Positions 11,819-63,914 are shown, counted from the first letter of the stretch. The stretch: DNA of 64,000 nucleotides from a bacterium (GCA_030704665.1 JAUYID010000009.1:662462-726461); one strand, 5' to 3'. Numbers and translations are program-made. Notes: a model not told the origin generated them from the letters alone.

Positions 11819-11824
11819 TTCCAC

Positions 11825-12307
11825 ATGCAGTTTGTCGAACCGCCCTCGAGAAAGGCAAAACGTCCAGTCATATCAGCTATTTTTTCCTTCCTTTATCTTT
11901 TAATTTTTCTTTTCGCTCTCAGTTTGCCGTTTCTTTATCAAAACTTGCCTTTCATTAGCTACCTGGGGCTCACAAAAACTTTAGTCCTGGTCCCGGCTGC
12001 GGTTTTGGCTGCCTATGCTTTTTTGATTGCTTTTTCCTTTTTTCTGCGGGGGGACAATTGGCTCCTTCTCTCGATTGTCATTCTTTTCTTCTCCACCCTA
12101 GGAGCGGTTTTTCTTCTTGTCCTCGGCATCATGACTGGGAAAAACCTGCCGAACGGGATTCCGAGCTGTGTTAATGATATAAGTTTGTGTAATTCAACTG
12201 ATGGCTTTACCTTGCTTTCTGCCCTTCTTCTTGGTATATCTATACCTACCCTAGTTCTGAATCTTTTAACTTTTATTGCTGCTTACAAAACTATGGGAAC
12301 CAAATAA
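11825..12307 (+). CDS. Hypothetical polytopic membrane protein (about 4 TM)
   Basis: 160 aa, highly hydrophobic. It lies between the sucD-like gene and the citrate-synthase-family gene. Confidence 0.4.
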   Translation: MQFVEPPSRKAKRPVISAIFSFLYLLIFLFALSLPFLYQNLPFISYLGLTKTLVLVPAAVLAAYAFLIAFSFFLRGDNWLLLSIVILFFSTLGAVFLLVLGIMTGKNLPNGIPSCVNDISLCNSTDGFTLLSALLLGISIPTLVLNLLTFIAAYKTMGTK

Positions 12308-43468: not shown

Positions 43469-43702
43469 ATGAAAAAACCTTCGACTTTTAATATCAGCTT
43501 ACTTACTCTTACCCTTTTCGCTCTTTTTACCAAACCAGCCCATGCTTACTTGAATCCCGGTACTGGAAGCGTCCTCTTTCAGTTTATGATCATCGGTATC
43601 GCGGGTGGGCTTTTTACTGTCAAAACTTATTGGTCGAGTATTAAAACCTTTTTCTCAAGATTCACTCAGAAAAAAACTGCCACGAAAAATGGCAAAAAAT
43701 AA
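43469..43702 (+). CDS. Small signal-peptide/membrane protein (77 aa)
   Basis: MKKPSTFNISLLTLTLFALFTKPAHA signal peptide plus a second hydrophobic segment. Confidence 0.35.
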   Translation: MKKPSTFNISLLTLTLFALFTKPAHAYLNPGTGSVLFQFMIIGIAGGLFTVKTYWSSIKTFFSRFTQKKTATKNGKK

Positions 43703-45083
43703 TCTTGCCGCCTCTTTTCGAGACCCAAGTGGTTTTCTTTTCAAAATTGACAATACCGTCTACCGACAAATAAATTCTTCTTACCGAGAGCACTTTGATT
43801 TTTTGCTAAAAAGCGGGCTCTATAAAAAATTAACCAGCGAAGGACTTTTAATTCCCCATCAAGAAGCCAACCTTTCTTTGAAACAAACCTCCCGGGCTTA
43901 CAAAATTATTAAACCCACTCAAATTCCGTTCATCTCTTATCCTTACGAGTGGTGTTTTAGCCAGTTGAAGGACTCTGCTTTGGTAACTTTAAAAATTCAG
44001 AAAATCGCTTTGGAACACGGAATGACCCTCAAAGATGCCAGCGCCTTCAATATTCAGTTTTTTGAAGGCAAACCCGTGCTGATTGATACTCTTTCCTTCG
44101 AAAAATACAAAGAAGGTGAACCTTGGGTGGCTTACAAGCAGTTTTGCCAGCATTTTTTGGCTACCTTGGCGCTTATGGCTTATACAGATTTTCGACTCTC
44201 CTCTTTGTTCAAAAATTACATTGACGGAATTCCTCTAGACTTAACTGTTAAACTTCTTCCTTTTAAAGCAAGGCTACGTATTCCACTTTTTTTGCATCTT
44301 TTCATGCACGCCAAGAGCCAAATTAACTACGCCGACAAGCAAGTGAAAAAAGAAGAAATTAAGAAAAGTATTTCAAAAACTTCCCTCCTGGCTCTAATTG
44401 ACAGTTTGGAAAGTGGGGTAAACCTACTAAAATGGAAGCCAGCAGGAACCGAGTGGGGCGACTACTACCCAGAAAACAACAATTATGTTTCTAGCGCACT
44501 AAAACAAAAAACGAATTTGGTGAAGGCTTTCTTAAACAGCCAAAAAACAAACTCTGTTTGGGATTTGGGAGGAAATACAGGCTTGTTTAGTAGACTTGCT
44601 TCTGATCAAAATATCCCCACCGTTTCTTTTGATATTGATCCGGATGCGATTGAAGTTAGTTATGAAACTCTTAAAAATAAAAAAGAGAAGTTCATTCTGC
44701 CTCTGCTGCTTGATCTAACTAATCCCAGTCCGGCTTTAGGCTGGGACAACCAGGAAAGGGACCCTATACTTTACCGAGCCAAGGTTGATACGATCTTCGC
44801 TCTAGCTATAATCCATCATCTGGCAATTTCGAACAATGTCTCTTTAGAAAATTTGGCTTCTCTATTCGCCAAACTTTGTAATAACTTGGTCGTTGAATTT
44901 ATCCCCAAAGAAGATTCTCAAGTTCAAAAACTTCTGGCCACACGAGAAGACATTTTCCCCGACTATACCAAGGAAGGTTTTGAAAAAGCCTTTGCAAACT
45001 TTTTTCTGATTGAAAAGTGCGAACTTATCAAGGCTAGCAAAAGATTTTTGTATTTAATGAGAAAAAATGGCCAAAAAGAATAA
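43689..45083 (+). CDS. Two-domain protein with a C-terminal class I SAM-dependent methyltransferase fold
   Basis: Start at MAKNNLAASF. WDLGGNTGLFS matches motif I (D/E-x-G-x-G-x-G). Confidence 0.5.
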   Translation: MAKNNLAASFRDPSGFLFKIDNTVYRQINSSYREHFDFLLKSGLYKKLTSEGLLIPHQEANLSLKQTSRAYKIIKPTQIPFISYPYEWCFSQLKDSALVTLKIQKIALEHGMTLKDASAFNIQFFEGKPVLIDTLSFEKYKEGEPWVAYKQFCQHFLATLALMAYTDFRLSSLFKNYIDGIPLDLTVKLLPFKARLRIPLFLHLFMHAKSQINYADKQVKKEEIKKSISKTSLLALIDSLESGVNLLKWKPAGTEWGDYYPENNNYVSSALKQKTNLVKAFLNSQKTNSVWDLGGNTGLFSRLASDQNIPTVSFDIDPDAIEVSYETLKNKKEKFILPLLLDLTNPSPALGWDNQERDPILYRAKVDTIFALAIIHHLAISNNVSLENLASLFAKLCNNLVVEFIPKEDSQVQKLLATREDIFPDYTKEGFEKAFANFFLIEKCELIKASKRFLYLMRKNGQKE

Positions 45084-46695
45084 AGTAACTGTAACTTTCT
45101 CAAAAGACTCTCTACTAAATTTCTTCAAAAAGCTGATCCAAGAACCGATCTATTTTTTCTTGTTTGCTCTCTATCCAACTTTATCGCTCTACTCGCAAAA
45201 CATTTCCGAGCTTTTTCCGGAAAAGATTCTTCCTTCACTAATTTTCGTTCCCACTCTAAGTTTAGTAATTTTTTTCCTCCTCTCCAAGCTTTTCAAAAGC
45301 AAAGACAAGGCAGCTCTCCTGGTCCTCTTGGTGCTGGTTTTAGCTTTCAATTATGACTTAGTCAAAACCTCTTTGCCTGATTTCACTTTTAATATCTTTG
45401 GTCTTGCCCTTGGTGCAAACAAAACCCTGGTTCCTCTCTTTGGATTTATTCTTCTTTTTGGTAGCTATTTAATCATCAGAAAAGGTAGTGCCAAGCTGAG
45501 GCAACCTCTAAATTGGTTGGTCATTCTTCTCCTTGTCTTTCCTTTGTTCAAAATCTTTTCTTACGAAGTAGGAACGAAAAGGTTTTTTGGTTTAACAAAA
45601 AGAGAAGTGGTGATTGAAAGCACTGACAAGCTGACCCTACCAAAAGACCCACCAGATGTTTATTACTTCATTTTTGACCGCTACGCTAGCTTTCAAAACC
45701 TCAAGGAGTTCTACAACTATGACAACAAAGAATTAGCTGACTTTCTAACTGAGAAAGGTTTTTATCTCGCCAAGGCCAGTCGCGACAATTATCCAGCTAC
45801 CTTCCTGTCTGTTTCAAGCTCTTTAAACTTAAATTACATCACTTCTCTGGTCAAGGCTTTGCCCAAAGATTCAAATGACCAGACTTTAGTTTATCCTCTC
45901 ATGGCCAACTACAAAGTCGAAAAAGATTTGAGAGCCCTTGGTTATAAATATTTTCATGTGGGCAGCTGGTGGAATCCGACCCGGGCCAACAAAAACGCCG
46001 ACAAAAACTATGTCTTTCGATTGTCCAATTTTGTCAATCTGGACGAGTTTTCTTCCAAACTTTTGGAAACAACCATTTTTTCACCAATCATCCAAAAACT
46101 AAATCGTTTCGATCTTGATGAACCCTACGGAAACTTTGATCACAGAAACAGAATTCTTTTTGGTCTGCAAAGTCTGAAAAAAATTCCCCAAGAGAGGGGA
46201 GGCCCAAAATTCGTTTTTGGTCATATACTTCTTCCACACGCTCCTTATGTTCTCGACCAAAACTGCAAACCAATCAGACCGGAACAGACAAAAAAACACT
46301 CTCCGGTAGTAAATTATCTCAACCACATCAAGTGTGCCAATTCAAATATCAAAGAAATTGTGAACAATATCCTGGCACAGTCGAAAAACTCGATCATCGT
46401 CATCCAGGCTGATGAGGGTCCAACCCCAATTTTGAACAAGGTCAGTCAGCGCTGGGACAAATCAAGCTTGAAGTCCCTGAAAGAAAAAACCGGAATTCTC
46501 AATGCCTACTATTTCCCTGACCAGAATTACAAAAACCTCTACCAGACGATTACCCCGGTCAACACTTTCCGGCTGGTTTTCAATCAGTACTTTGGGGCCA
46601 ATTTTAAAAAATTGGAAGACAAAATTTTCATTTTCGAAAACCCTACCGGAGCTCCGTACAAACTCCACGATCGAACCAAAGAAATTTTTAAATAG
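45067..46695 (+). CDS. Membrane-anchored alkaline-phosphatase-superfamily (sulfatase/phosphotransferase-like) protein
   Basis: 542 aa: an N-terminal multi-TM domain, then a soluble domain with YYFIFDRYAS and HILLPHAPY motifs. Confidence 0.5.
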   Translation: MAKKNKVTVTFSKDSLLNFFKKLIQEPIYFFLFALYPTLSLYSQNISELFPEKILPSLIFVPTLSLVIFFLLSKLFKSKDKAALLVLLVLVLAFNYDLVKTSLPDFTFNIFGLALGANKTLVPLFGFILLFGSYLIIRKGSAKLRQPLNWLVILLLVFPLFKIFSYEVGTKRFFGLTKREVVIESTDKLTLPKDPPDVYYFIFDRYASFQNLKEFYNYDNKELADFLTEKGFYLAKASRDNYPATFLSVSSSLNLNYITSLVKALPKDSNDQTLVYPLMANYKVEKDLRALGYKYFHVGSWWNPTRANKNADKNYVFRLSNFVNLDEFSSKLLETTIFSPIIQKLNRFDLDEPYGNFDHRNRILFGLQSLKKIPQERGGPKFVFGHILLPHAPYVLDQNCKPIRPEQTKKHSPVVNYLNHIKCANSNIKEIVNNILAQSKNSIIVIQADEGPTPILNKVSQRWDKSSLKSLKEKTGILNAYYFPDQNYKNLYQTITPVNTFRLVFNQYFGANFKKLEDKIFIFENPTGAPYKLHDRTKEIFK

Positions 46696-52099: not shown

Positions 52100-52147
52100 A
52101 CCCTAACCCCTAACCCCTAACCCCTAACCCCTAACCCCTAACCCCTT
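52100..52147. repeat. Tandem heptamer repeat (CCCCTAA)n of about 6.5 units; TTAGGGG on the minus (coding) strand
   Basis: Direct reading: ccctaa cccctaa cccctaa cccctaa cccctaa cccctaa cccctt. It overlaps the last codons and stop of the GT2 gene and lies about 165 bp upstream of the GalE-like start. Confidence 0.9.
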
Positions 52148-52873
52148 CAATTTTAACCTTCGGTCGCGCAGTTTAAAGGCGGTCCAAACAAACTCTATTA
52201 TATCCCCTGGGCCAATTTTGGTATGCCCTATCTTTCTTTCGACAAACTCCACCGGAACTTCTTTGATCTTTCCGCCTCCCACAAAAGCTTCAAAAAGTAA
52301 GCTCATTTGAAAAGAATAGCCTTTGACGTGAAGCTTGGTGAGATCGATTTTTTTGAGCAACTCAACTCTGATTGCGCGGAAACCGGCCGTACAATCCGCC
52401 ACGTCATCGATGCCAGCGATATAACGGGCAAAACGGTTGCCCCAACGGCTGTTGGCTTTTCGTAACAAACTCCAACCCTCTGGTATCTTACCTCCGGGGA
52501 CGTAACGACTACCAATGACAAAGTCAGCCCCAGAATCAATTTCAGCAATCAGTCGCGGTAAATCCTCTGGCTTGTGGGAAAGATCGGCATCCATCTCGAC
52601 GACGATCTCTGCCTCTAACTTTTCCATTGCGTAGCGCATTCCGCGAATATAGGCTGCTCCAAGGCCTTGTTTTTCACCGCTAACCAAATGAAGGTTTTTG
52701 TGAGTTTTAATTAGTTCGCCGACTGCCTGCGCTGTTCCATCCGGAGAGTTGTCGTCAACCACCAGTATTTGCAGGTCGTGATTAATTCTATTTCTTTGCT
52801 CCGCGAGCAATGGAATAAGTTTTTGGATGTTTTCGCGCTCACGGTAAGTGGGGATGATGACAACAATTTTCAC
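52124..52873 (-). CDS. Polyprenol-phosphate glycosyltransferase, GT2 family (DPM1-like)
   Basis: 249 aa. IIPTYRERENI ... VVDDNSPDGT ... EMDADLSH (DxD) motifs. The C-terminal GLGVRG residues are encoded by the heptamer repeat. Confidence 0.8.
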   Translation of the reverse strand: MKIVVIIPTYRERENIQKLIPLLAEQRNRINHDLQILVVDDNSPDGTAQAVGELIKTHKNLHLVSGEKQGLGAAYIRGMRYAMEKLEAEIVVEMDADLSHKPEDLPRLIAEIDSGADFVIGSRYVPGGKIPEGWSLLRKANSRWGNRFARYIAGIDDVADCTAGFRAIRVELLKKIDLTKLHVKGYSFQMSLLFEAFVGGGKIKEVPVEFVERKIGHTKIGPGDIIEFVWTAFKLRDRRLKLKGLGVRG

Positions 52874-52904
52874 TAAAATAGGATATCTTTAAAAAGAAAG
52901 TCTG

Positions 52905-54116
52905 TCAAAAACTTGGAGCAGAAAGGGTCGAGACTTCTGATTTTTGACCGGTACTTAAGTTAATAATTACAATAGTTTTTTCTCCTGTAAAACTACCGTC
53001 TGTCACACACTCACCTGAATTGCATTCTCTCAACTTTAAAGTAACCAAAATATTATCATTTACCCAAGCGGGAGTAGCTAAATGCTTCCCTAAACTTTTG
53101 TCTATCTTGCTGTTCAAATTAAATAGACCAACACTCGAATCGGAAGCTTCTGATTCATTAACGGCATAACCTTTGCTGTGAGCAAGGTTTTTACCGTCAG
53201 GGGAAACCGAAGGGCTAGACCAATCTTTTTCAGAACTGATTTTCTCGTCAGTCTTTGAAGCAAGGTCGTAAATATGCATTCCCTCAGAAATCTCCTTGTA
53301 AACAAAGCTAGTGTTTGATACCCAAACTGGCAAAGTCACGTCTCCCTTTATACTAGCTACCTTCGCTCCATTGGTGTCAAAGACTAATATTTTTTCATCA
53401 GTACTGTAGAAAGTGTCAACTATAAGGACCTTATTTGTGTCTGGAGAAAATTTGGCCGAAAAAGCATCGTCTTGTGAAGCTCCCCTACCAACAGAAGCCT
53501 TTTCATAAAGCACTTTGTCTTGATCGGTGGTTAAATCAAAAAGATGTACCGTCACTTTGTCGGAAAAATAGTTAAAAAGTAGTTTTTTATAATCTTTTGT
53601 GATGTCAGTTAGATAAATAGGCTTTTTAAATTTTTTATCTTGGCTAAGAGAAAATTTATTTCCCTTGAAAACCCCTTGCCAAAGCTCACTGCCACTGCCT
53701 TTCTCTTTAACAAAAACAAATGTCGTCTGGGTAAGGAAAGTAGGATTCCGATAAAGAAGGTCGTTTGATCCATCTTTGGTTATCTGAGTTTTCTTTTTAC
53801 TGACAACATCAAGTACCCAAATATTGTTCTTGTCCACAAAACCAACTTTTGTAATCGTCTCGCTCTGAGCGTCTTTGTCCTTTGAAGTTTGCTTTGAACT
53901 GGAAGAAGCTTGTTTGGTGGTATCAGTCTTCGGATTTTTGTTGCTGGTTTTATTCAGTACTAAGTAACCGCCTGCTCCTAAAAGCGCGACTATTACTAAA
54001 ACCCCGAGAGCCAAAAAAAGTTTGTTAATGCCTTTTGTTGGATTTGTTAAGTTTATTTCTTGTTTGGGAAATTCAGCGGGTTTCTGGTTGTCTACTGGGT
54101 TTGATTCATCGGGCAT
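52905..54116 (-). CDS. Membrane-anchored beta-propeller (TolB/PD40-like) protein
   Basis: Single N-terminal TM, a Ser/Thr/Lys-rich linker, then a beta-rich region with FSPDTNKVL / SVSPDGKNLAH PD40-like repeats. The first ATG is at 54116; the track ORF starts at a TTG at 54152. Confidence 0.4.
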   Translation of the reverse strand: MPDESNPVDNQKPAEFPKQEINLTNPTKGINKLFLALGVLVIVALLGAGGYLVLNKTSNKNPKTDTTKQASSSSKQTSKDKDAQSETITKVGFVDKNNIWVLDVVSKKKTQITKDGSNDLLYRNPTFLTQTTFVFVKEKGSGSELWQGVFKGNKFSLSQDKKFKKPIYLTDITKDYKKLLFNYFSDKVTVHLFDLTTDQDKVLYEKASVGRGASQDDAFSAKFSPDTNKVLIVDTFYSTDEKILVFDTNGAKVASIKGDVTLPVWVSNTSFVYKEISEGMHIYDLASKTDEKISSEKDWSSPSVSPDGKNLAHSKGYAVNESEASDSSVGLFNLNSKIDKSLGKHLATPAWVNDNILVTLKLRECNSGECVTDGSFTGEKTIVIINLSTGQKSEVSTLSAPSF

Positions 54117-54150
54117 TGTTCTAATTATAGGTTGCCGGAAATTGCTTGTC

Positions 54151-54178
54151 AAAAAAAGACCCCGCCTTGCAGCGGGGT
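54151..54178 (-). terminator. Intrinsic-terminator-like hairpin read on the minus strand (ACCCCGC-tgcaag-GCGGGGT, then T7)
   Basis: 7-bp GC-rich stem with a 6-nt loop and a U-run on the minus strand. It abuts the alternative TTG start (54152) and lies 35 bp upstream of the first ATG (54116) of the minus-strand gene. Confidence 0.4.
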
Positions 54179-54185
54179 TAGGGTA

Positions 54186-54220
54186 ACACCCGCTGACATA
54201 TTAGCAGGGGTGTTTTTTTT
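54186..54220 (+). terminator. Intrinsic-terminator-like hairpin read on the plus strand (ACACCCgCTG...CAGgGGGTGT, then T8)
   Basis: Stem-loop then TTTTTTTT, about 55 bp upstream of secA. No plus-strand gene lies upstream of it. Confidence 0.4.
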
Positions 54221-54276
54221 GTCAACCCTTTACTTTCGACCTCTAGTTTATTATAACTAGTCTTTTTTGAGGACAG

Positions 54277-57045
54277 ATGCTATACTGCTCGGGCTTTGAG
54301 GACCCAACAAAAATGCTAAAGTTTTTTGGCCAACTACTTGATTCAAACGAACGGGAAATAAAAAAACTTCAACCTATTGTTGAGGCGACTGCTGCTTTTG
54401 AGCCAGAACTAAAAAAACTCTCTGCTGCAAAATTAAAGAAGCAAACCGAGGATTTCAAAAAGCGCCTGGAAAAGGGTGAGACTCTTGATGACCTCCTTCC
54501 AGAAGCTTTTGCTACTGTCAGAGAAGCCTTCCGTCGCACTCTTGGGGTGCGGCCCTACGACGTCCAAATCATGGGTGGCACAGTCCTCCACCAAGGCAAA
54601 ATTGCCGAAATGCGCACCGGAGAAGGAAAAACTTTCGTCGCTACTCTACCTCTCTATCTCAACTCTTTGGTTGGTAAAGGCGCTCATCTAGTCACGGTCA
54701 ACGATTATTTGGCTCGTCGTGACGCTGAATGGGTCGGACCGGTCTTTCACTTGCTGGGAGTAAGCGTTGGCGTCATCAACCATGAAAAATCCTATCTTTA
54801 TGACCCCAACCCGAAAACCAAAGAAGATGATGCGGCTGAAGTTCATTTGACGGCTGCTCAAGCCGCCTCCCCAGATTTGGAAGGAATCGGTATTGGTCGT
54901 TTTTTACGAGAAGTGACTCGCACCCAAGCTTATGGGGCTGACATTACCTACGGAACTAACAATGAATATGGCTTTGATTATCTCCGGGACAACATGGCTG
55001 ATAGTTTGGACAATTATGTTCAAAGAGGGCATCACTACGCTATCGTCGATGAAGTTGACTCAATTTTGATTGATGAGGCCCGCACCCCTCTGATCATTTC
55101 CGCTCCAGCCGAAGAATCGACAGAAAAATACTACGAATTTTCTCGTCTCGTCGATAAACTCACTATCGAAACTGATTTTGTCGTTGATGAAAAAATGCGC
55201 ACTGCCTCTCTGACTGAAATCGGGATTGCCAAAATCGAAAAGCTTCTGGGAGTCGACAATTTGTATGAAAAAGATTTTGAAACGATCCATCATCTCGAGG
55301 AGGCTCTCAAATCCAAAACTCTCTTTTTCCGCGACCGCGACTATGTCGTCAAAGATGGCGAGGTCATCATTGTTGATGAATTTACCGGTCGCATGCTCCC
55401 GGGCCGGCGCTACAGTGAAGGCTTGCACCAAGCCATTGAAGCCAAAGAAGGTGTCGAAATTCAGCGGGAGAGCCGCACCTTGGCAACAATTTCTTTCCAA
55501 AATTATTTCCGTCTTTATGAAAAACTCGCCGGTATGACCGGTACAGCCACTACCTCGGCGGAAGAGTTTCACAAAGTTTATACACTGGACGTCATCACCG
55601 TCCCAACCAACAAACCCATGATTAGAAAAGACCTTCCTGATGCAGTCTACAAAACCACGGCTGCCAAATACGAAGCGATCGTCAAGGACGTCGTAGAGCG
55701 ACACAAAAAGGGTCAACCGGTGCTGGTAGCAACCATTGATATCAACAAGAACCAACTTCTAAGTGACTTGCTGAAACGAAAAGGTATCCCTCACGAGCTT
55801 CTCAATGCAAAATCTATCGCCGAGCAAGATGATCGTGAATCAAAAATCATCGCTTCTGCTGGTCAAAAAGGAGCAGTGACTGTCGCCACCAACATTGCCG
55901 GTCGAGGGGTCGATATTAAGCTAGGCGAAGGCGCTGATAAAGCCGGTGGACTGCACATCATTGGCTCAGAACGCCATGACGCTCGGCGCATTGACAACCA
56001 ACTCCGTGGTCGGTCTGGTCGTCAGGGGGACCCGGGTTCAAGTCAATTTTACGTCAGTTTGCAGGACGATTTGATGAAGCTTTTTGGTGGCGACACGGTC
56101 GCCGGTTTGATGAACGCTCTGAAAATTCCCGATGATGTCCCAATCGAAAACCCAGTTGTCTCCAAGTCAATTGAATCGGCTCAAAGTCGCGTCGAAGGCC
56201 AGAATTTTGACAGCCGTAAGCGCGTCGTCGAGTATGACGATGTCATGAACAAACAAAGAGAGGTCATTTACTCGCTACGGCGCGAAATCCTCGAACTGGG
56301 AGACCCGAACAACGAGAATAAGGAAGAGGCTGAAAAAAAGCTGCGCGAAATGGTCTTTCCAAAAATTGAAGAAGAAATCGAGGTTCTCGTCGACACTTCC
56401 TTGGCCGAAACCAAAATTGATCTGGATATTAATCATCTGACGGCCGAATACTTCACGATTCTTCCTTTTGACGAAGCTTCACAGAAAGAAGTTTTGGAAG
56501 AAGTCGGGAAAAAGAAGAGTAGTCCTGAAGAAGTAAAAGACTATCTGAAAGGCCTGGCGAAAAAGGTTTATGAAACTCGCGAGGCTGCTTTGGGAAGAGA
56601 AGTTTCGCGGCAAATCGAAAAACTAGTTTTGATCTCGGTCATCGATACTCTCTGGATCAATCACTTGGAGGATATTGATGATTTGCGTGAAGGTATTGGT
56701 TTGCGTGGTTATGCCCAGCGCGACCCGCTTGTCGAATACAAAGCTGAAGCCTACAAACTTTTTGAGGATCTCATGGACGCGATCGACTACGAAACTGTCC
56801 ACCGTATTTTCAAAGTTCAAGTCCAAACCCAACCCACTCCTCCAGCGGTCCAAACCACGATGACGACTTCTTCCGGGGCTGCCACAGAGTCTCATGCTGG
56901 CCACAACCACCCAGTGGCTGAAGCGGTTCTAGTAGGGGATAAAATCGGCCGCAATGATCCCTGTCCTTGTGGTAGTGGTCTTAAGTACAAAAAATGTGGG
57001 CTTGTAAATAGCCCAACACATCAAGAAAATATGGCTAAAGCCTAA
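54277..57045 (+). CDS. secA: Preprotein translocase ATPase SecA
   Basis: 922 aa with DEAD-like motor motifs (MRTGEGKT, DEVDSILIDEARTPLIIS) and a C-terminal zinc-binding tail CPCGSGLKYKKCG. Confidence 0.97.
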   Translation: MLYCSGFEDPTKMLKFFGQLLDSNEREIKKLQPIVEATAAFEPELKKLSAAKLKKQTEDFKKRLEKGETLDDLLPEAFATVREAFRRTLGVRPYDVQIMGGTVLHQGKIAEMRTGEGKTFVATLPLYLNSLVGKGAHLVTVNDYLARRDAEWVGPVFHLLGVSVGVINHEKSYLYDPNPKTKEDDAAEVHLTAAQAASPDLEGIGIGRFLREVTRTQAYGADITYGTNNEYGFDYLRDNMADSLDNYVQRGHHYAIVDEVDSILIDEARTPLIISAPAEESTEKYYEFSRLVDKLTIETDFVVDEKMRTASLTEIGIAKIEKLLGVDNLYEKDFETIHHLEEALKSKTLFFRDRDYVVKDGEVIIVDEFTGRMLPGRRYSEGLHQAIEAKEGVEIQRESRTLATISFQNYFRLYEKLAGMTGTATTSAEEFHKVYTLDVITVPTNKPMIRKDLPDAVYKTTAAKYEAIVKDVVERHKKGQPVLVATIDINKNQLLSDLLKRKGIPHELLNAKSIAEQDDRESKIIASAGQKGAVTVATNIAGRGVDIKLGEGADKAGGLHIIGSERHDARRIDNQLRGRSGRQGDPGSSQFYVSLQDDLMKLFGGDTVAGLMNALKIPDDVPIENPVVSKSIESAQSRVEGQNFDSRKRVVEYDDVMNKQREVIYSLRREILELGDPNNENKEEAEKKLREMVFPKIEEEIEVLVDTSLAETKIDLDINHLTAEYFTILPFDEASQKEVLEEVGKKKSSPEEVKDYLKGLAKKVYETREAALGREVSRQIEKLVLISVIDTLWINHLEDIDDLREGIGLRGYAQRDPLVEYKAEAYKLFEDLMDAIDYETVHRIFKVQVQTQPTPPAVQTTMTTSSGAATESHAGHNHPVAEAVLVGDKIGRNDPCPCGSGLKYKKCGLVNSPTHQENMAKA

Positions 57046-57050
57046 AACGC
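56982..57050 (+). repeat. Direct repeat copy 1 (DR1): the native secA 3' end, encoding ...KYKKCGLVNSPTHQENMAKA*
   Basis: Template for two downstream degenerate copies. See DR2 and DR3. Confidence 0.7.
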
Positions 57051-57191
57051 CATTAATTTCTCTAAATTATAGGACTAAAAATTAGACTGTTTATAACTTA
57101 TGACGTCCACAAGGAGTCTCAAGACTCTTACTCGTTTATCAAATAGTATCCCAGTCCATCAAAGCTTAATACCAACTAGCTAACAGCCTAC

Positions 57192-57235
57192 TTGACAGCG
57201 AATTGTTGTTTGTTAATATACTTATATATTAAGTA
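57192..57235 (+). promoter_or_regulatory. Sigma70-like promoter (TTGACA-16 bp-TAATAT) overlapping an inverted repeat ATACTTA-tatat-TAAGTAT. Probable MarR autoregulatory operator.
   Basis: Consensus -35 at 57192-57197 and -10 at 57214-57219. 7-bp perfect arms at 57217-57223 / 57229-57235, 17 bp upstream of the marR-family ATG. Confidence 0.55.
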
Positions 57236-57251
57236 TCTAACATAACTTCGT

Positions 57252-57695
57252 ATGTCGACAAGAGACCAACTCATTGAAGAAATTCTGCATAGCCTCCACG
57301 CTATTCGTAATCATATTAAGGCAAAGGCTGTTCATTTGGGGCATCAAAATCATATTACCCACTCCCAATGGTTTATTTTGAAAACTATCGAACACTATAA
57401 AAGCGTAAGTATCAAAGATATAGCGGAAACACTAGGGATGTCTTCAAGTGCTGCAACTCAGCTTGTGGACGGTCTTGTGCAAGCGGGTTTTGTGATAAGA
57501 CAAGAAAACCCCAATGACCGCCGATTGGTACGGTTGGAGCTTTCGCCAAAAGGCAAGAGGCATATCGCTGCTACGAAAGAAAATCGCATAACCGAAATGG
57601 CACAAGTTTTTGACGCATTGAACGATAAGGAACTTGCGGGATACCTGAAATTGCAGAAGAAAATTCTATCAAAATTTTTGCACAAAAAATCTTAA
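57252..57695 (+). CDS. MarR-family transcriptional regulator
   Basis: 147 aa with a winged-HTH region (VSIKDIAETLGMSSSAATQLVDGLVQAGFVIRQENPNDRRLVRLELSPKG). Confidence 0.8.
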   Translation: MSTRDQLIEEILHSLHAIRNHIKAKAVHLGHQNHITHSQWFILKTIEHYKSVSIKDIAETLGMSSSAATQLVDGLVQAGFVIRQENPNDRRLVRLELSPKGKRHIAATKENRITEMAQVFDALNDKELAGYLKLQKKILSKFLHKKS

Positions 57696-57728
57696 CTCAA
57701 ATAAAACAATGCGATTACTAGGACTAAA

Positions 57729-58562
57729 ATGAACACTTTTCTTCAGTATATCGGGAGATATTTTAGATCTATGCATTATGTCACCATTGTTGTTCTACTG
57801 GTGGTAGCACTTGTTGCAAATACCGGCCGTGGATTTCCTGTAAATTTGGCTGTGGCCGTTCTTGTGGCACCCGTCCTGGATGTTGCTATAAAACGCTTTT
57901 GGCTGAAAAAGAAACCAACTCTACCCTTATCAGCAATCATTACGGGCTTGATAATCGGCACTGTATCAGTAAATGCACCCGTTTCTGGAGTTCTTATTGC
58001 CACATTTCTGGCGATAGGTTCTAAATTCATCATTAGGTGGAACGATTTACACATCTTCAATCCAGCTGTGTTTGGCGTGGTTATTGCACAAGTCTTTAAC
58101 CCAGCCGCTCACGGTGCCGTTACCCATGGTTCATCCCAGGTAGTAGAAGGTTTTGGGGTAGGAGGTTTTACTGTAACTCTCTGGCTCGTGCCGCTTTTGA
58201 TATTTGCGAACTGGCGGGCAAGAAAACTGTGGACTTCAATCCCATTTCTGACTGCAACAGCATTGCTTTTCTACTTCACAAGACTCGCAAGTCTCAATTC
58301 ATTCAATACTCAAGGTGTAATGGGATTTCTTGAAGTCCTGCCCTATTATTTTGCATTCATTATTGTTTCAGAACCGAAGACTTCGCCTAGTGCTAAGAAA
58401 GAGCAGGTCTTGTTTGGACTGGCAATCGCAGTTTTTTCCGTTTTGCCTCTAATTGTTTTGGGTTCCTATTCCCACCTCGGAGCACTTGCAGCAGTGCTTC
58501 TTGGAAATTTAATTTATGTGGCTTATCGCACCAGGAAGATAACTAAATCCTTACAAAAATAA
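57729..58562 (+). CDS. Polytopic membrane protein (about 8 TM), possibly NqrB/RnfD-like
   Basis: 277 aa, Gly/Ala-rich TM helices. The family assignment is tentative. Confidence 0.35.
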   Translation: MNTFLQYIGRYFRSMHYVTIVVLLVVALVANTGRGFPVNLAVAVLVAPVLDVAIKRFWLKKKPTLPLSAIITGLIIGTVSVNAPVSGVLIATFLAIGSKFIIRWNDLHIFNPAVFGVVIAQVFNPAAHGAVTHGSSQVVEGFGVGGFTVTLWLVPLLIFANWRARKLWTSIPFLTATALLFYFTRLASLNSFNTQGVMGFLEVLPYYFAFIIVSEPKTSPSAKKEQVLFGLAIAVFSVLPLIVLGSYSHLGALAAVLLGNLIYVAYRTRKITKSLQK

Positions 58563-58693
58563 TTAACTCCTCGGTAGTACAATTAAACAACAATACCATA
58601 GTGATTGAACAAAACTCTTGTGAAGCGACTGCTATGGGGTTTCATTCTGAGGCTATCAGTCTCACCCATTGAACCTATGGGTGGGCCATTATG

Positions 58694-58762
58694 TAAGCAC
58701 TTCAAAAAATGTTGTCTTGTAAATATACCGGCACATCAAGAAAATATTGCTAAGGCAAAAGA
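58694..58762 (+). repeat. Direct repeat copy 2 (DR2): degenerate copy of the secA 3' end (about 80% identical to DR1)
   Basis: taagcacttcaaaaaatgttgtcttgtaaatataccggcacatcaagaaaatattgctaaggcaaaaga versus DR1 taagtacaaaaaatgtgggcttgtaaatagcccaacacatcaagaaaatatggctaaagcctaaaac. Confidence 0.7.
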
Positions 58763-58816
58763 CCGGGTTTAGGACAAGATTGACTAGCTTATTTTTTTGT
58801 ATTATTCTATATATAG

Positions 58817-59347
58817 ATGAAAATCGCTGCCCTGCTCATCTCCTTTCTTATTTTTATCGGCTCTATTACTATTGTTAACGCAGCTGATACCGGAACAGTT
58901 GCTGCCACTGTCACTCCTCAAAGCATTTCTGTAACTGTTACAGATGGTTCAGTCGCCTATGGAACCGTTGATCTTAGTAGTACCCAAGCTACTACTTCTG
59001 GTGGTTTAGATGATACTCAGGTAGCAACCAACAACGGAAATGTAGCTGAAGACTTCAATATCACAAGTACAAATGCAACTGGGGGAACAGCCTGGACTCT
59101 AGCTAGTACTATCGGTACTGATCAATATAAGCATTCTTTTTGTACCGCCGGTGGCGGCAGTCCAGATCCATGTGACAGCACTCCAACCTGGACAGCAATA
59201 ACAACTGCCGGGTCTTATCAGTCTCTTTCAACAAATGTCGCTGCGAGCGGTACAACAAGATTTGACCTCCAACTCAGCACCCCAAGCTCAGTTGCTGACT
59301 ATGTTCAGAAATCTATCACGGTAACTGTCCAAGCAGTCGCTAACTAA
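58817..59347 (+). CDS. Secreted surface protein with a conserved C-terminal domain (WxL-like, Cys pair)
   Basis: Sec signal peptide (MKIAALLISFLIFIGSITIVNA). The C-terminal ~140 aa are collinear with the C-terminus of the 61051 gene: SVAYGTVDLS ... AEDFNI ... AWTL ... SFCTAGGGSPDPCDSTPTWT ... RFDLQL ... VTVQAV. Confidence 0.5.
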   Translation: MKIAALLISFLIFIGSITIVNAADTGTVAATVTPQSISVTVTDGSVAYGTVDLSSTQATTSGGLDDTQVATNNGNVAEDFNITSTNATGGTAWTLASTIGTDQYKHSFCTAGGGSPDPCDSTPTWTAITTAGSYQSLSTNVAASGTTRFDLQLSTPSSVADYVQKSITVTVQAVAN

Positions 59348-59401
59348 GAAATCTCACCACTTTCATTTTCTTTTTGACTTCTGCTATAGTAGCAGCACTT
59401 T

Positions 59402-60016
59402 ATGGGAAAGCTCTGCTTTTTTTTCGTTTTGCTTGTTTTTTTTCTTGCTGTTCCAAAGGCTGCTCTTTCTGATATTGGGGTTGGAGTTGGAACTGGAAAA
59501 ATAGTTTTGAATGAAAAACTAAAACCCGGAGCTACCTACAAACTTCCACCGTTGACGGTCTTTAATACCGGCACCGTGACCGCCACTTATAAGATCAGAC
59601 CAGCGTTCAACGAAAAACAATCTCAAAAAAAACCAAAAGCCTCATGGTTCTCATTTTCACCAGAAAAAATTAGTATTAATCCGAAAAAATCAGAAGTAGT
59701 AACAGCGAGACTTTCTCTGCCTTTATCGGCTCCACCGGGAGATTATTTTGTCTATTTAGAAGCCGTTCCTGATCAAACAGTCCAAAAAGGTACTACCTCT
59801 GTGGGAGTAGCTGCCGCTACAAAACTTTATTTCACGGTGGTCCCAGCCAACTTTCTGATGGCTCTTCTTTATCGAATAATATCAATCTATCAGCAATTTG
59901 CACCTTGGAGCTATCTGCTAACCCTACTTGTAGTATCGATAACGCTAATCATAGTGCTGAGGAGAGTCATTATAAGACTTCTCCTCACAATCGCAAGGCT
60001 GCTAGAAAAGATATGA
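59402..60016 (+). CDS. Membrane-anchored surface protein (signal peptide, ~150-aa beta-rich domain, C-terminal TM); DUF916/DUF3324-like in pattern
   Basis: 204 aa. GKIVLNEKLKPGATYKLPPLTVFNTGTVTATYKIRP ... SWFSFSPEKISINPKKSEVVTARLSLPLSAPPGDYFVYLEA, then a hydrophobic C-terminus. Confidence 0.5.
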   Translation: MGKLCFFFVLLVFFLAVPKAALSDIGVGVGTGKIVLNEKLKPGATYKLPPLTVFNTGTVTATYKIRPAFNEKQSQKKPKASWFSFSPEKISINPKKSEVVTARLSLPLSAPPGDYFVYLEAVPDQTVQKGTTSVGVAAATKLYFTVVPANFLMALLYRIISIYQQFAPWSYLLTLLVVSITLIIVLRRVIIRLLLTIARLLEKI

Positions 60017-60069
60017 CCGAATTAAAGTCGCGACTAATAAAAAATGCCAAAGCCTTCCACAGGGACTTT

Positions 60070-60684
60070 ATGAGAAATTTCTGTTTGATTCTTACCATTT
60101 TTTTCTTTTTTCTATTCGTAGCCGCGCTTCCTACTGTAGCTGACGTAGGCGTAGGCGTGGGCACTGGAAAGATCAATGTCACTGAGAAACTCAAGCCGGG
60201 TGCTAGTTACACTCTTCCACCAATGACCGTCTTTAATACCGGCACCGTGACCGCCACTTATAAGATCAGACCAGCGTTCAACGAAACTCAACCGCAGAAA
60301 AAACCGGATGCGAGTTGGTTTTCCTTTTCCCCTGAAAATTTTACTCTTACAACCAAAGACTCCCAAAGAGTCACACCAAGACTTTCTCTTCCTTTGAGAA
60401 CACCCCCGGGTGATTATTTTGTCTATCTAGAAGCTGTACCCGACAAGACAGTTCAGAAAGGTGACACCTCTGTGGGAGTAGCTGCCGCCACCAAACTTTA
60501 CTTTACTGTTGTACCAGCAAACCTCTTCATGGCCATCCTCTACTGGATTATCTCTTTTTATCAAAACTATGCTCCTTTCAGCTACATTCTTACTGCTCTT
60601 TTTGTCTTTGGTGTCCTGACAACTATCTTTAGAAAATACTTTAACTTTTCATTCAGGATTCAAAAGAAAGGCAGAGGCAGCTAA
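60070..60684 (+). CDS. Membrane-anchored surface protein, tandem paralog of 59402..60016
   Basis: Start chosen at MRNFCLILTIFFFFLF (a signal-peptide-like start). An alternative ATG at 60013 overlaps the upstream stop (ATGA). About 70% aa identity to the paralog, with identical nucleotide blocks. Confidence 0.5.
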   Translation: MRNFCLILTIFFFFLFVAALPTVADVGVGVGTGKINVTEKLKPGASYTLPPMTVFNTGTVTATYKIRPAFNETQPQKKPDASWFSFSPENFTLTTKDSQRVTPRLSLPLRTPPGDYFVYLEAVPDKTVQKGDTSVGVAAATKLYFTVVPANLFMAILYWIISFYQNYAPFSYILTALFVFGVLTTIFRKYFNFSFRIQKKGRGS

Positions 60685-60686
60685 AG

Positions 60687-61010
60687 ATGAAGATCCACAA
60701 TTTTTACTTAATCTTGCTTTTCACAAGCTTCTTCTTTTTGCTCGCTAGCTTCATCCCAAAAAAGGTCTTGGCCAACAATACAGTCACCGCTACTGTCCAA
60801 ATTCGGCCTCCAGCAAAATCAAGTGTCGAGCTGCCTGGATCAAAATTAGACGAGAAGACCTTTGTTTCCCACGAAACCGGTTTATTAAACAAAAGCGGCT
60901 GGAAAAGCTCTATCTTGCAATACGGTCAACTATCACCAGAGGCACTTGAAGTGAGGAAGCAAACTATTTATCTAAAATCGTTGTTGAACTACTTCATCGC
61001 TGGCCCTTAA
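60687..61010 (+). CDS. Small secreted protein (107 aa) related to the N-terminal segment of the membrane-anchored paralogs
   Basis: Signal peptide. NNTVTATVQIRPPAK resembles TGTVTATYKIRPAF in the paralogs. Confidence 0.4.
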   Translation: MKIHNFYLILLFTSFFFLLASFIPKKVLANNTVTATVQIRPPAKSSVELPGSKLDEKTFVSHETGLLNKSGWKSSILQYGQLSPEALEVRKQTIYLKSLLNYFIAGP

Positions 61011-61050
61011 CATACGGTCTAATACTAGCCTTTACTTAATTTGACTAAAC

Positions 61051-62160
61051 ATGATAAACCCTTTTCTTAACTCAAAAAAATCGTTTTTAAAAAGATTTAT
61101 TGTTTTTCTTTTAATTTTATTCTGGTTATTGTCCGGTTGGCCACCCCTTTGGCAAAATCCCAGCTTCCCACCAAAAATTGGTTTTGTCCAAGCTAGTACT
61201 CTGACCAAAACGTTTACTTTTGATGCAGATACCGAAAGTTGGACCGCCACTGCCTGTGGAGCTGCCGGAGCAACTTGCGCTTGGCAATCCAGTGCTGGTA
61301 GCCCAGCCAATGGAAGTTTGGAAGAGCCGGAAACCAGAAAAAACAAAAGTGGAACCTGGACTTGGGAACTTTCTGGAATTTCGTGGGAGAGCCTTGGCGT
61401 ACCGACAGGTAGTGTTGTAACTGTCGTTGATGGTTCCTACAACCACACCATGGCTACTTGTACGAATTGTAACACTACCGGAGGAAATACATCCGGCACT
61501 TTATCGATCCGCGACTCAGGAGATACCACAACAGTCACTACTCTGGAAACAGAAGTTTCTTACACTGGCGCTACTAGTTGGGCGGCTCGTAATGCTTCTG
61601 GTGCCCAGTCCATCGGTGCTTCTTACCAAGCAAGTTCAACCGGCATTATTCTGCGTCTTTCCGGTAGTATCCAAACCAACAATGTTAACGGTGCGGCCGC
61701 TGTGATAAGACAAGACCAAATCTCCATGGTAATCACCTACACCACTCCAGTGATCTCCGTTTCTATCAGTGACGGCTCTACCGCTTACGGAACCTTGGCA
61801 GTAAATACCAACGAAGATACCACCTCCTCGGGCTTAAACGATACCCAGGTAGCAACCAACGACGGTGACGCTGCCGAAGATTTCAATATCAAAGGACAAT
61901 CTAGTGCTGCTTGGACTCTTGGTGCTAGCGCCGGTAGTGAACAGTATGTCCATTCTTTCTGTACTTCGGGGACTGGTAGTCCAGATCCCTGTGACAGTAG
62001 TCCGACTTGGACAACCCTAACTACAGGTTATACAACTTTGGCCAGTAATATTGCTACTAGCGGTACTCAACGCTTCGACCTGAAAATTACGACACCTACA
62101 TCTACCACCGCCACCACCCAACAAAGCGTCAATGTGACAATACAGGCAGTTCTCCACTAA
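61051..62160 (+). CDS. Large secreted surface protein (369 aa) with the same conserved C-terminal domain as 58817..59347
   Basis: Signal/TM N-terminus and a Thr/Ser-rich middle region. C-terminus: STAYGTLAVN ... AEDFNIKG ... AAWTL ... SFCTSGTGSPDPCDSSPTWTTL ... RFDLKI ... VTIQAV. Confidence 0.5.
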   Translation: MINPFLNSKKSFLKRFIVFLLILFWLLSGWPPLWQNPSFPPKIGFVQASTLTKTFTFDADTESWTATACGAAGATCAWQSSAGSPANGSLEEPETRKNKSGTWTWELSGISWESLGVPTGSVVTVVDGSYNHTMATCTNCNTTGGNTSGTLSIRDSGDTTTVTTLETEVSYTGATSWAARNASGAQSIGASYQASSTGIILRLSGSIQTNNVNGAAAVIRQDQISMVITYTTPVISVSISDGSTAYGTLAVNTNEDTTSSGLNDTQVATNDGDAAEDFNIKGQSSAAWTLGASAGSEQYVHSFCTSGTGSPDPCDSSPTWTTLTTGYTTLASNIATSGTQRFDLKITTPTSTTATTQQSVNVTIQAVLH

Positions 62161-62173
62161 TTCAGCTATATCA

Positions 62174-62246
62174 CGAGCACTTCAAGAAGTGTGGTCTTAC
62201 CGACTCACCCCAACACCAGGAAAACCTGGTTAAAGCCCAAACATAA
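62174..62246 (+). repeat. Direct repeat copy 3 (DR3): more diverged copy of the secA 3' end
   Basis: gagcacttcaagaagtgtggtcttaccgactcaccccaacaccaggaaaacctggttaaagcccaaacataa. Its conceptual translation HFKKCGLTDSPQHQENLVKAQT* mirrors the SecA tail YKKCGLVNSPTHQENMAKA*. Confidence 0.6.
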
Positions 62247-62267
62247 CTGCTTTTCCACAAAAACAAT

Positions 62268-63914
62268 CTAAAAATGGTCTCTGACGTGCTGGAGTGAGTA
62301 TTCCATTGAGGCATCAGTTTTTTTGTGCGGGTTGAAAATGTTCTCGGGATCAAAAATATTTTTCACCTCTTTGAAAAAGTTGAACATTTTCTCTCCATAC
62401 ATTTTTTGCAAATATGGTCCTCTTATCAAACCATCGTTGTGTTCGGCCGAAATAGAGCCTTTGTATTCAAGAACAAGATCGTAAACTTCATTTGCGACAA
62501 TGGGAATTTTTTCTTTTTCGCCAGCTAGAGCTAGGTTCATCAGGGGGATAACGTGAAAATTTCCATCTCCCATGTGTCCGGCAATAGTATAGAGGAGCTG
62601 GTATTTATCCAAAATCGCCGTCAGGCGTGGAAAGAATTCCAGCAAATGCTCCGGAGAAACAATGAAATCATCAATAAAAGGAGCGGTGTGTTTGTCTTTA
62701 ATATTTTTTCTCAAAAGGTTGAAGCTTTCCCGCCGTATCACCCAATATTTTTCGGCTTTGCTTTTTGTATTTGCTTTACTTGTTTTGATATTGAAATGTT
62801 TGATCTGTTGGTGGAGTTCCTCAAGCTTTTGGTCGACTTCATCTTGAGTTTCACCACCGTACTCAACTAAAAGAGTAAATTTGGGGATTCCCTCAGTTGC
62901 AAACATCAAAAGCTGGGGCAGAAAATTCAGGCCCATTTCTATGGTTCCTTTTAGCCCCAGAATTTGGACGAATTTGGGAATAAATTTCAATGCTAGTTTC
63001 ATTGTATGGTCATCAAAAGCTTCAAAACTTTCTGGTTTTGTCGGAACAACCGCATGGACCAGCTCTGGAAGTTTGTGTAAATCTTCAACATAGATGACCA
63101 AAAGCCCGGAATATTTTCTGATTGGGATCAGTTTTAACTTCGCTTCGGTTACCAAGCCCAGAGTACCCTGTGAGCCGACGAAAAGTTTGCTGAGATCAAA
63201 AACACCTTTCTCCCGATCCCAAACATCCCAAAGATTGTAGGCAGTAGAGTTTTTGCTGACCTTGGGTTTAGCAGCTTTGATCGTCTCGTAATTTTCCTCG
63301 ACAATCCGGTAGATCTGGCGGTAGAATTCCCCTTCAAAATTCTCCGCTTTGAGTTTTTCGTCCAATTGTTGTCTGTTGAGCGCTTCCAGGCTGTACTCAT
63401 TGCCGTCACGGAGAATCACTTTTAACCCTTCCACATAGTCAATCGTTTTTCCATGAATCAGGGTTTTTTCTCCGCCTGAATTGTTGTTGATCATCCCACC
63501 CAAAGCGCAAATGTTCTTTGAGGCTGGATAGCTAGGCAGATAAAGCCCTCGCTTTAGTGTCTCTTTTTCAAAATCACGGTAAAAGACCCCTGGTTGGGCT
63601 GTTATTGTTTCCTCTTCAAAATTCTTGATCTGGTTGAAATGTTTTGTAAAATCAACAATGATTGAATCGTTGATTGCCCCACCACCCATATCAGTTCCAC
63701 CAGAACGGGCGGTCAAGGAAATGGTTGGATCCTCCTGCTTTTTCTTGACAATATACTGAACTAACCTTTCAACGTCTTCGCTATCTTTGGGATAAACAAC
63801 TACTTTGGGTTTTATTTCAAAAAGGCTGGTGTCATGGCTGTAAAAACTGAGGGTTTGCGGGTCACTTAAAACCTCACCTTTAATAACTTCTTTAAGGTCT
63901 TCAAATAAGCTCAT
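62268..63914 (-). CDS. FAD-linked oxidase (FAD-binding PCMH type; GlcD/D-lactate dehydrogenase-like)
   Basis: 548 aa. N-terminal FAD_binding_4-type region (ISLTARSGGTDMGGGAIN) and a C-terminal oxidase domain. Confidence 0.75.
   Translation of the reverse strand: MSLFEDLKEVIKGEVLSDPQTLSFYSHDTSLFEIKPKVVVYPKDSEDVERLVQYIVKKKQEDPTISLTARSGGTDMGGGAINDSIIVDFTKHFNQIKNFEEETITAQPGVFYRDFEKETLKRGLYLPSYPASKNICALGGMINNNSGGEKTLIHGKTIDYVEGLKVILRDGNEYSLEALNRQQLDEKLKAENFEGEFYRQIYRIVEENYETIKAAKPKVSKNSTAYNLWDVWDREKGVFDLSKLFVGSQGTLGLVTEAKLKLIPIRKYSGLLVIYVEDLHKLPELVHAVVPTKPESFEAFDDHTMKLALKFIPKFVQILGLKGTIEMGLNFLPQLLMFATEGIPKFTLLVEYGGETQDEVDQKLEELHQQIKHFNIKTSKANTKSKAEKYWVIRRESFNLLRKNIKDKHTAPFIDDFIVSPEHLLEFFPRLTAILDKYQLLYTIAGHMGDGNFHVIPLMNLALAGEKEKIPIVANEVYDLVLEYKGSISAEHNDGLIRGPYLQKMYGEKMFNFFKEVKNIFDPENIFNPHKKTDASMEYSLQHVRDHF

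Follow-up and report, generated by a model that had tools for sequence, protein, structure and literature searches.

Conserved genes can serve as landing sites for several mobile elements in succession, and arrays of cassettes that lack a recombinase of their own and rely on an enzyme encoded elsewhere are well known from integrons and from Xer-dependent IMEX/pdif modules, in which toxin-antitoxin cargo is frequent. Tandem islands are also found at ssrA in Dehalococcoides. The closest described systems include the cis-mobilizable elements (CIMEs), defined as integrative elements that have lost their integrase by deletion (PMC6323972), and the tandem accretion of elements at the 3' end of a protein gene; in Streptococcus thermophilus, such accretion is exemplified at fda by the ICESt1/ICESt3 family. 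In staphylococci, composite islands of the staphylococcal cassette chromosome (SCC), including the recombinase-less ΨSCC, are found at the 3' end of rlmH (orfX) (10.1101/336396; PMC11470126). Prophage e14 and phage 21 insert into the icd gene of E. coli (PMC6379469), and successive integrations push older elements outward in the tycheposon islands of Prochlorococcus (10.1101/2020.12.28.424599). Here we describe an array of small cassettes at the 3' end of secA, within a 64,000-nucleotide stretch of DNA from a bacterium (GCA_030704665.1 JAUYID010000009.1:662462-726461; hereafter the window). Three copies of the secA 3' end, DR1 to DR3, delimit two cassettes, M1 and M2. An original prediction, made from the sequence of the window, had proposed serial site-specific insertion at the secA C-terminal codons; it is strengthened by five more genomes that carry such copies around different cargo, and the secA 3' end is very probably a recurrent insertion hotspot. 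No description of secA as an attachment or insertion site was found in the literature searched, of which the library was incomplete, in line with that prediction. The parts of the locus are the following:

54313..57045, plus strand: secA, the target gene, encoding 910 aa with SecA_DEAD, SecA_SW and SEC-C domains
56960..57049, plus strand: DR1, an attL-like junction; its left side is of secA type (GSGLKY), the core AAAAAATGTGG occupies 56989-56999, and the tail LVNSPTHQENMAKA, of type A, ends with the stop codon 57043-57045
57046..57150, plus strand: post-stop non-coding stretch, conserved with relatives L002 and L003 and with the third copy of L003 (DRb)
57192..58562, plus strand: M1 cargo, a promoter-like site (57192-57219) and two genes
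57252-57695, plus strand: MarR regulator of M1 (Pfam)
57729-58562, plus strand: NQR2/RnfD-like membrane protein of M1 (Pfam)
58674..58764, plus strand: DR2, with element-type left arm at 58677-58703 (..CCATTATGTAAGCACTTC) and core AAAAAATGTTG at 58704-58714; its displaced tail CLVNIPAHQENIAKAKDRV extends past the profile-defined repeat, with a stop at 58770-58772
58817..62160, plus strand: M2 cargo, five open reading frames (ORFs) of secreted or membrane-anchored appearance
58817-59347, 59402-60016, 60013-60684, 60687-61010 and 61051-62160, plus strand: the M2 ORFs, from the ORF listing
62161..62246, plus strand: DR3, with a short element-type left arm at 62171-62183 (GAGCACTTC), core AAGAAGTGTGG at 62184-62194 and tail LTDSPQHQENLVKAQT, stop at 62244-62246
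62268-63914, minus strand: FAD-linked oxidase, convergent, after DR3 (Pfam)

About 20 terminal codons of secA are repeated twice downstream, in the same orientation. A repeat search of the window returned direct repeats at 56988-57048 (the reference), 58703-58763 (82% identity) and 62183-62243 (64%), which an nhmmer profile widened to 56960-57049, 58674-58764 and 62161-62246; the same profile found no further copy in the window at E<=1 or in the 9.3 kb past its end. In a six-frame search of the window, the motifs [YF]KKC[GCH] and HQEN coincided at these three sites only, all on the plus strand. The C-terminal peptide of SecA, YKKCGLVNSPTHQENMAKA, is mirrored by the conceptual peptides of DR2 (KHFKKCCLVNIPAHQENIAKAKDRV) and DR3 (HEHFKKCGLTDSPQHQENLVKAQT), each of the three being followed by a stop. 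When the last 29 SecA residues were compared with the window by tblastn, DR2 and DR3 were matched with E=9e-7 and E=5e-7, and the next-best match had E=0.6. The similarity is therefore not that of low-complexity A-rich sequence, a possibility raised in the original prediction, whose three repeats, with the second about 80% identical to the first, the third more diverged and its translation still resembling the SecA tail, were all recovered. The array is also unlikely to be a misassembly on the repeat, since independent Logan assemblies of run SRR13727534 show no difference from the window at any of the three junctions (contig L007 covering 52117-58358, L024 covering 58334-59587, and L006 running from 60257 to the window end and 9332 nt beyond). 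Remnants of other SEC-C-domain genes were considered as a source of the repeats and rejected: there is no ORF context, and every copy lies after secA in the same orientation. As a separate observation, the unitigs L007 and L024 break within the RnfD-like gene of M1 with a 25-nt overlap (58334-58358), which hints at a branch of the assembly graph, and so at strain variation, within this cassette.

The recurrence of insertion is seen in relatives. Five loci were obtained by scanning species-representative genomes with the C-terminal third of SecA, and a metagenome scan with a single narrow peptide pattern, [KE][HR]FKKC[GC]L, added three new loci and one duplicate of L003. Five related genomes carry one to four downstream secA-tail copies, in the same orientation as secA, and the cargo between copies differs in every occupied genome (six with the window):

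L003 (Woykebacteria): four downstream copies (five in total) and four cassettes, with ArsR-thioredoxin-permease, RHH-PIN, NYN and a 951-aa DHH protein
L001: partial and interrupted copies, with a TelA-containing set and a Phd/YoeB pair
L002: one downstream copy, with a 379-aa ORF
L004: one downstream copy, with a 535-aa ORF
L014: several downstream copies, with a PIN pair, a 249-aa ORF and a Phd/YoeB pair

The C-terminal third of SecA is 43-63% identical to that of the window in L001-L004, the genomes covered by this figure (L014 was recovered by its repeat peptide). Five other genomes (L005 and L020-L023) have no downstream secA-tail copy within 10 kb of secA. This comparison of the regions downstream of secA, foreseen in the original prediction, supports insertion: there are occupied and empty sites, the cargo is variable, and the same downstream genes without repeats were not seen among the relatives. 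Moreover, the Phd/YoeB cassettes of L001 and L014 are 80% identical over 601 nt and their secA genes are about 69% identical; that the cassette is more alike than the host genes points to cassette transfer. It may be added that records titled 'uncultured Gammaproteobacteria' (L001, L004) and 'Nanoarchaeia archaeon' (L002) carry a Microgenomates-like SecA and similar flanking genes, and these taxonomic labels look wrong.

The anatomy of the repeats was established by aligning all copies on the Cys codon. The left side of every secA reads …GGnAGyGGnyTnAArTAy (GSGLKY). By contrast, the left arm of every full-length downstream copy reads …ATATGTGyACCATTAcACAAGCACTTC (C-x-P-L-x-K-H-F), which is present in no secA. 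This element-type arm (DNA CCATTAcACAAGCACTTC, peptide ..PLxKHF) spans about 25-30 nt, is one codon longer than that of secA, and has diverged from it. When a left-arm profile was built from other genomes only, the arm of DR2 was the top match in the window (E=0.04), and secA was not matched. The arm can be aligned between genomes so distant that, for non-coding DNA, selection or recent transfer would be needed. To its right, the copies have a common core, AARAARTGYGG, corresponding to Lys-Lys-Cys-Gly codons, followed by one of three types of tail with its stop: type A (L[VI][ND]SPxHQENMAKA…), type B (LI[NG][SA]PQHK[GM]) or type C (HYPN). The switch between types lies 3' of the Tyr/Phe codon in every copy. 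In L004, the copy in secA and the one downstream of it match without a difference over exactly 25 nt (CAAAAAATGCCACTATCCTAATTAA) between unrelated flanks, which is a classic att core. A left arm belonging to the element, joined to a short common core, is what attL and attR sites resulting from attP x attB would display, and not what a duplicated resident target would. The original prediction had spoken of target-site duplications; this does not hold, as the downstream copies carry an arm that is absent from secA.

Tail types also inform on the origin of each copy. First, 20 of 57 bases are changed between DR1 and DR3, and 13 of 19 residues are nevertheless kept (P ~3e-5); random mutation, simulated 100,000 times, left on average 6.7 residues in common, and only 3e-5 of the runs reached 13. 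Most changes are synonymous or conservative, with eight codons differing synonymously, including AGC versus TCA for Ser. A similar coding constraint is found between the tails of L003 secA and window DR1 (P ~3e-4). Since DR3 keeps its residues despite base changes, it diverged as coding sequence rather than decaying in place, and it looks like a displaced, once-translated tail. The idea that older copies are progressively more decayed, put forward in the original prediction, is thus contradicted by this copy, which has also kept its stop and a secA-like GC content at third codon positions (GC3). Indeed, GC3 is 0.55 in DR3, 0.47 in the secA body, 0.25 in DR1 and 0.15 in DR2 (on only 20 codons), values that would fit an earlier resident tail in DR3 and imported tails in DR1 and DR2. 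True decay is confined to the most distal copies, such as that of L003 (17488-17537), which reads YFKNFCLINALQYKG before its stop. Second, in a listing of the 120 best-scoring SecA homologues, B tails are the main type where the GLKYKKCGL motif is present, C tails prevail in other Microgenomates, and A tails are rare. In L002 and L003, secA ends in an A-type (HQEN) tail and the most distal intact copy is of type B (PQHKG). Because type B is common among the GLKYKKCGL relatives and is yet distal here, the native end was displaced outward. Third, these SecA proteins share the pattern C-x-C-x8-C-G, and the zinc finger of the window SecA (56962-57042) reads C-P-C-x8-C-G, without the canonical fourth Cys/His ligand just behind the third Cys. 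A His located eight residues further along is kept in all tail types, within the part that cassettes would replace. This residue may complete the SecA zinc site, which would explain why cassettes need to carry a correct tail.

Taken together with the repeat anatomy, these tails suggest the following mechanism. Circularisable cassettes of about 0.6-4.5 kb, devoid of a recombinase, would insert recurrently at the secA 3' end. Each would carry an attP-like site composed of the left arm, the KKCG core and a full substitute SecA tail with its stop, often with about 100 nt of post-stop sequence. A crossover within the core would join the secA body to the cassette-borne tail, so that the essential gene stays intact, and would move the previous tail to the far side of the cassette, now behind the left arm of the latter. 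Repeated rounds would yield the order secA-DR1-M1-DR2-M2-DR3, in which the newest cassette, M1, adjoins secA. In the window, the last 16 codons of secA and its stop, i.e. everything 3' of the KKCG codons, were probably supplied by M1; at DR2, the right end of M1 would meet the tail that came with M2, and at DR3, the right end of M2 would meet the oldest secA tail remaining in the window. The recombinase would be supplied in trans, either from elsewhere in the genome or by a helper element. We consider this full mechanism, including a site-specific recombinase acting in trans, to be somewhat more probable than its contrary.

The absence of a nearby recombinase is consistent across the loci. In the window, Pfam scans that covered the non-nested ORFs of 140 aa or more, together with the 107-aa cassette ORF, returned no recombinase, integrase or transposase, as the original prediction had stated for integrases, and none was called in the 9.3 kb past the window end. 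Likewise, Pfam detected no recombinase among the scanned array and neighbouring ORFs of the relatives, and a regular-expression scan, heuristic only, found no tyrosine or serine recombinase motif in the window or in those loci of the relatives that it covered. No cognate integrase was thus found, in an element or in a tandem partner, in the window, the 9.3 kb beyond it and all arrays examined. In IMG/VR viral contigs, the DNA pattern AGCACTTCAARAARTGYGG gave three matches, roughly the chance number, none of them in a secA-tail-like context, and a repeat-peptide profile gave no confirmed match. NCBIfam searches of the uncharacterised cargo proteins of the relatives returned nothing useful.

Several observations weigh against this mechanism. 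The catalysis is entirely inferred, no recombinase having been found in the sequences scanned. The core of DR2 deviates by one mismatch (TGTTG instead of TGTGG), the left arm of DR3 fits the element consensus over its proximal ~12 nt only, and the divergence between DR1 and DR2 is compatible with neutral drift (P=0.08). In a look-up for alleles with a DR2 or DR3 tail, i.e. empty-site variants, the SecA 90% cluster and the MarR cluster were both singletons and yielded no empty-site allele. L001 and L014 contain several incomplete or interrupted copies, so that the arrays may for the most part be fossil. At 9999-10081 in L012/L013, an element-type repeat (…KKHFKKCGLINSPQHNSSIK, then a stop) stands as an orphan, with no secA within 10 kb upstream, which the simple model does not predict. 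Finally, the sample is small, with six occupied genomes and a narrow metagenome pattern. Two observations can be recorded on these same sequences: the orphan repeat stands after an amidase gene and an ORF of no known kind, and before LemA/TPM genes; and in L001 a B-type copy (14730-14810) is split by a 31-nt insert, TAGTCCGAAGGACGCAGAGCGCGAAGCGATC, between its KRCGL and its INAPQHKA-stop codons.

A number of resemblances to the systems described above can be noted. As in SCC islands, a conserved gene receives serial insertions in its last codons, the elements are bordered by direct repeats, some of these elements lack a recombinase and adjoin the target, and the resistance, defence and surface genes carried by SCC can be likened to the cargo of the secA cassettes. 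SCC repeats are short, whereas those of secA carry a distinct conserved left arm and about 16-19 replacement codons. Furthermore, at least one element of an SCC island carries the large serine recombinase CcrAB or CcrC, unlike what is seen at secA; SCC elements are characterized by the rlmH target and a Ccr serine recombinase, and here the target is secA, with no serine recombinase motif or domain found. As with e14 in icd, insertion falls inside the 3' coding region, an alternative 3' end is supplied, and the displaced native end persists as a pseudo-3' fragment; e14, by contrast, is a single prophage with its own integrase and not an array of recombinase-less cassettes. Scattered partial copies of the target end, in small-genome hosts with few classical transfer systems, recall the tycheposons and ssrA islands, which differ in targeting tRNA or tmRNA genes and in mostly encoding their own tyrosine or serine recombinase. 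The secA arrays differ from these systems in the secA target, the host group, the small size, the uniform absence of a recombinase in about 12 cassettes, and the long composite site.

The likeness is closest with the CIMEs. The modules have no integration or transfer genes, retain attL/attR-like repeats, are lined up one behind the other where a housekeeping gene ends, and would be expected to need the recombinase of another element for mobilisation. Several traits of CIME-type elements are present, namely flanking repeats derived from the target, an arm of their own with a short core, an intact target, and occupied and empty sites with variable cargo; a cognate integrase is absent from the sequences scanned. 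On the other hand, no integrase-bearing partner occurs in the six arrays, the cassettes are much smaller, the target is secA, the hosts belong to the candidate phyla radiation, and the long repeat includes a full replacement coding tail. The modules could nonetheless be classical CIMEs, that is, decayed prophages, integrative and conjugative elements or integrative and mobilizable elements whose own secA-specific integrase was lost by deletion. This matches the very definition of CIMEs (PMC6323972), and the partial, interrupted and truncated copies of L001, L014 and L003 attest to deletion and decay. It is nevertheless unlikely, because neither an integrase nor a fragment of one detectable by Pfam is present in about 12 cassettes from six genomes, because many of them are only 0.6-1.7 kb long and hold a single compact operon, with a promoter of its own, immediately behind the tail, and because both att-like ends are kept, the independent loss of the integrase from every element being improbable.

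Insertion by RecA-dependent, Campbell-type recombination of circular or concatemeric foreign DNA bearing a secA-like 3' segment would dispense with a dedicated recombinase altogether. The 82% identity of DR1 and DR2 over 61 nt, with identical runs of 10-16 bases, is what such a process could use, and RecO is encoded in the window. However, in the events of L002 and L003 in which an A tail replaced a B tail, the reconstructed attB and attP have only ~5-13 nt in common around TGYGG. This is below the length of homology usually required by RecA, and so short an overlap argues against Campbell integration driven by RecA and for a site-specific enzyme. In addition, homology should select a left arm identical to that of secA, and the actual arm (CCATTAcACAAGCACTTC) is conserved yet different; the position of the type switch, constant in every copy, also speaks against RecA. 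We regard this route as improbable.

An explanation without mobility, in which the repeats form a functional 3'-UTR, terminator or regulatory module or result from local tandem duplication, is largely refuted. It could draw on the ~100 nt after the stop, where conservation extends across genomes and a terminator-like hairpin is found. No Rfam match was obtained in 56800-62400 at E<=1, there is no significant fold, and conservation tracks codon positions; the intervening genes are wholly different between relatives, some of which have no copies, and the downstream left arm, absent from secA, shows that these copies are not duplicates of the resident end.

Integron and pdif arrays share with the secA arrays modules that each end in a recombination site, the lack of a recombinase of their own, and toxin-antitoxin cargo. 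In a strict integron, an IntI-type integrase would recombine the cassettes in the form of folded single-stranded attC sites. This is very hard to reconcile with repeats that fold no better than shuffled sequence (z -1.9 to 0 for eight copies, as single-strand DNA) and show no attC-like fold, with the lack of an intI gene adjoining the array among the Pfam-scanned ORFs of the window, and with cargo lying in both orientations behind its own promoters. Unlike integron and pdif sites, the secA site mimics coding sequence and rebuilds a protein C-terminus. IMEX/pdif modules are bounded by 28-bp dif-like sites with XerC and XerD arms; no dif-like palindrome was apparent on reading the repeat alignments, the dif site of the host organisms not having been identified. 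A Tn7-like mechanism, which entails a transposase, terminal repeats and a 5-bp target duplication, is rejected, the Pfam-scanned ORFs of the window having no transposase domains and the duplications being 60-90 nt long and inside coding sequence.

Returning to the proposed cassettes that would replace the SecA tail, their parts can be further specified in the window. The SecA protein is an exact match to MDP2671626.1. Downstream of its stop, the 57046-57150 stretch, which may represent the proximal arm of M1, is 80-81% identical to L002 and L003 by blastn and includes the terminator-like hairpin (57112-57129); the corresponding ~100-nt element lies at 5484-5590 in L002 and at 10976-11075 and 13615-13700 in L003. 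Its consensus contains TAGGACTAAAnTTTGGGGyGTTTATAACTTATTACCTCCACAAGGAGTC, and the pairing of its small hairpin is kept through base changes; the element has no Rfam match. In the Phd/YoeB cassettes of L001 and L014, a B-type tail opens the cassette and a TTGACA promoter follows directly. The MarR regulator and membrane protein announced between DR1 and DR2 by the original prediction correspond to the Pfam families MarR and NQR2/RnfD-like. This pair also exists as a unit at other loci: L015 matches 57191-58564 at 80% nucleotide identity and lacks the repeat, and the homologues of the pair in L015-L019, other Microgenomates, lie in unrelated contexts that do not adjoin secA and have no repeat. 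Since it is found away from secA, the cargo is modular and not tied to the site.

As for M2, a set of surface-protein genes had been proposed between DR2 and DR3. Five plus-strand ORFs are indeed present, with hydrophobic N-termini on inspection of their translations; none of the five proteins has a Pfam or NCBIfam match. The second and third ORFs (59402-60684) are tandem paralogues of 204 and 223 aa, with 75% nucleotide identity over 300 nt, and the first and last proteins have a C-terminal domain in common. Members of the 204-aa family occur widely in Patescibacteria, and JGI names some of them PapD-like (pilus) chaperones. The strand switch expected after DR3 is that of the convergent FAD-linked oxidase gene.

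Bacteria of the candidate phyla radiation have tiny genomes in which few mobile elements have been described, and how they gain accessory genes is poorly understood. The secA locus provides a hotspot defined by sequence, whose signature (left arm, KKCG core and spare SecA tail) can be searched in thousands of metagenome-assembled genomes. Such a search could catalogue toxin-antitoxin, metal/redox and surface-structure cassettes, and co-occurrence could reveal the recombinase. As a mobile element must encode part of an essential protein correctly to be tolerated, the arrays also constitute a natural experiment on the SecA C-terminal tail, and a compact pair of recombinase and site, if found, is a possible tool for organisms without genetics. 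A more speculative proposal, which we put forward tentatively and think rather less likely than its contrary, is that of a Microgenomates-type cassette-capture system, not previously described, in which the last codons of secA act as a permanent docking site and one chromosomal or helper recombinase shuffles cassettes that rewrite the tail. If true, it would be a functional analogue of the integron built on coding sequence, and the function of the SecA tail might change with each capture.

Other features of the window lie apart from the array. The upstream neighbours of secA encode a DPPIV_N-like protein and a GT2 glycosyltransferase. At 43605-46695, neither of two large neighbouring ORFs (492 and 542 aa) has a Pfam match at E<=1e-5. 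At 9346-13074, adjacent genes encode ATP-grasp_2/Citrate_bind, CoA_binding/Ligase_CoA and Citrate_synt C-terminal domains, a set that is ATP-citrate-lyase-like or citryl-CoA synthetase/lyase-like and unexpected in a candidate-phyla-radiation-type genome of ~0.94 Mb. Finally, a very long glycan biosynthesis cluster, mostly on the minus strand, extends from 16750 to 43415 and encodes, among others, six GT4 glycosyltransferases, a Wzy_C ligase/polymerase, a flippase, several epimerases/dehydratases, a DegT aminotransferase, acetyltransferases and a UDP-glucose dehydrogenase.

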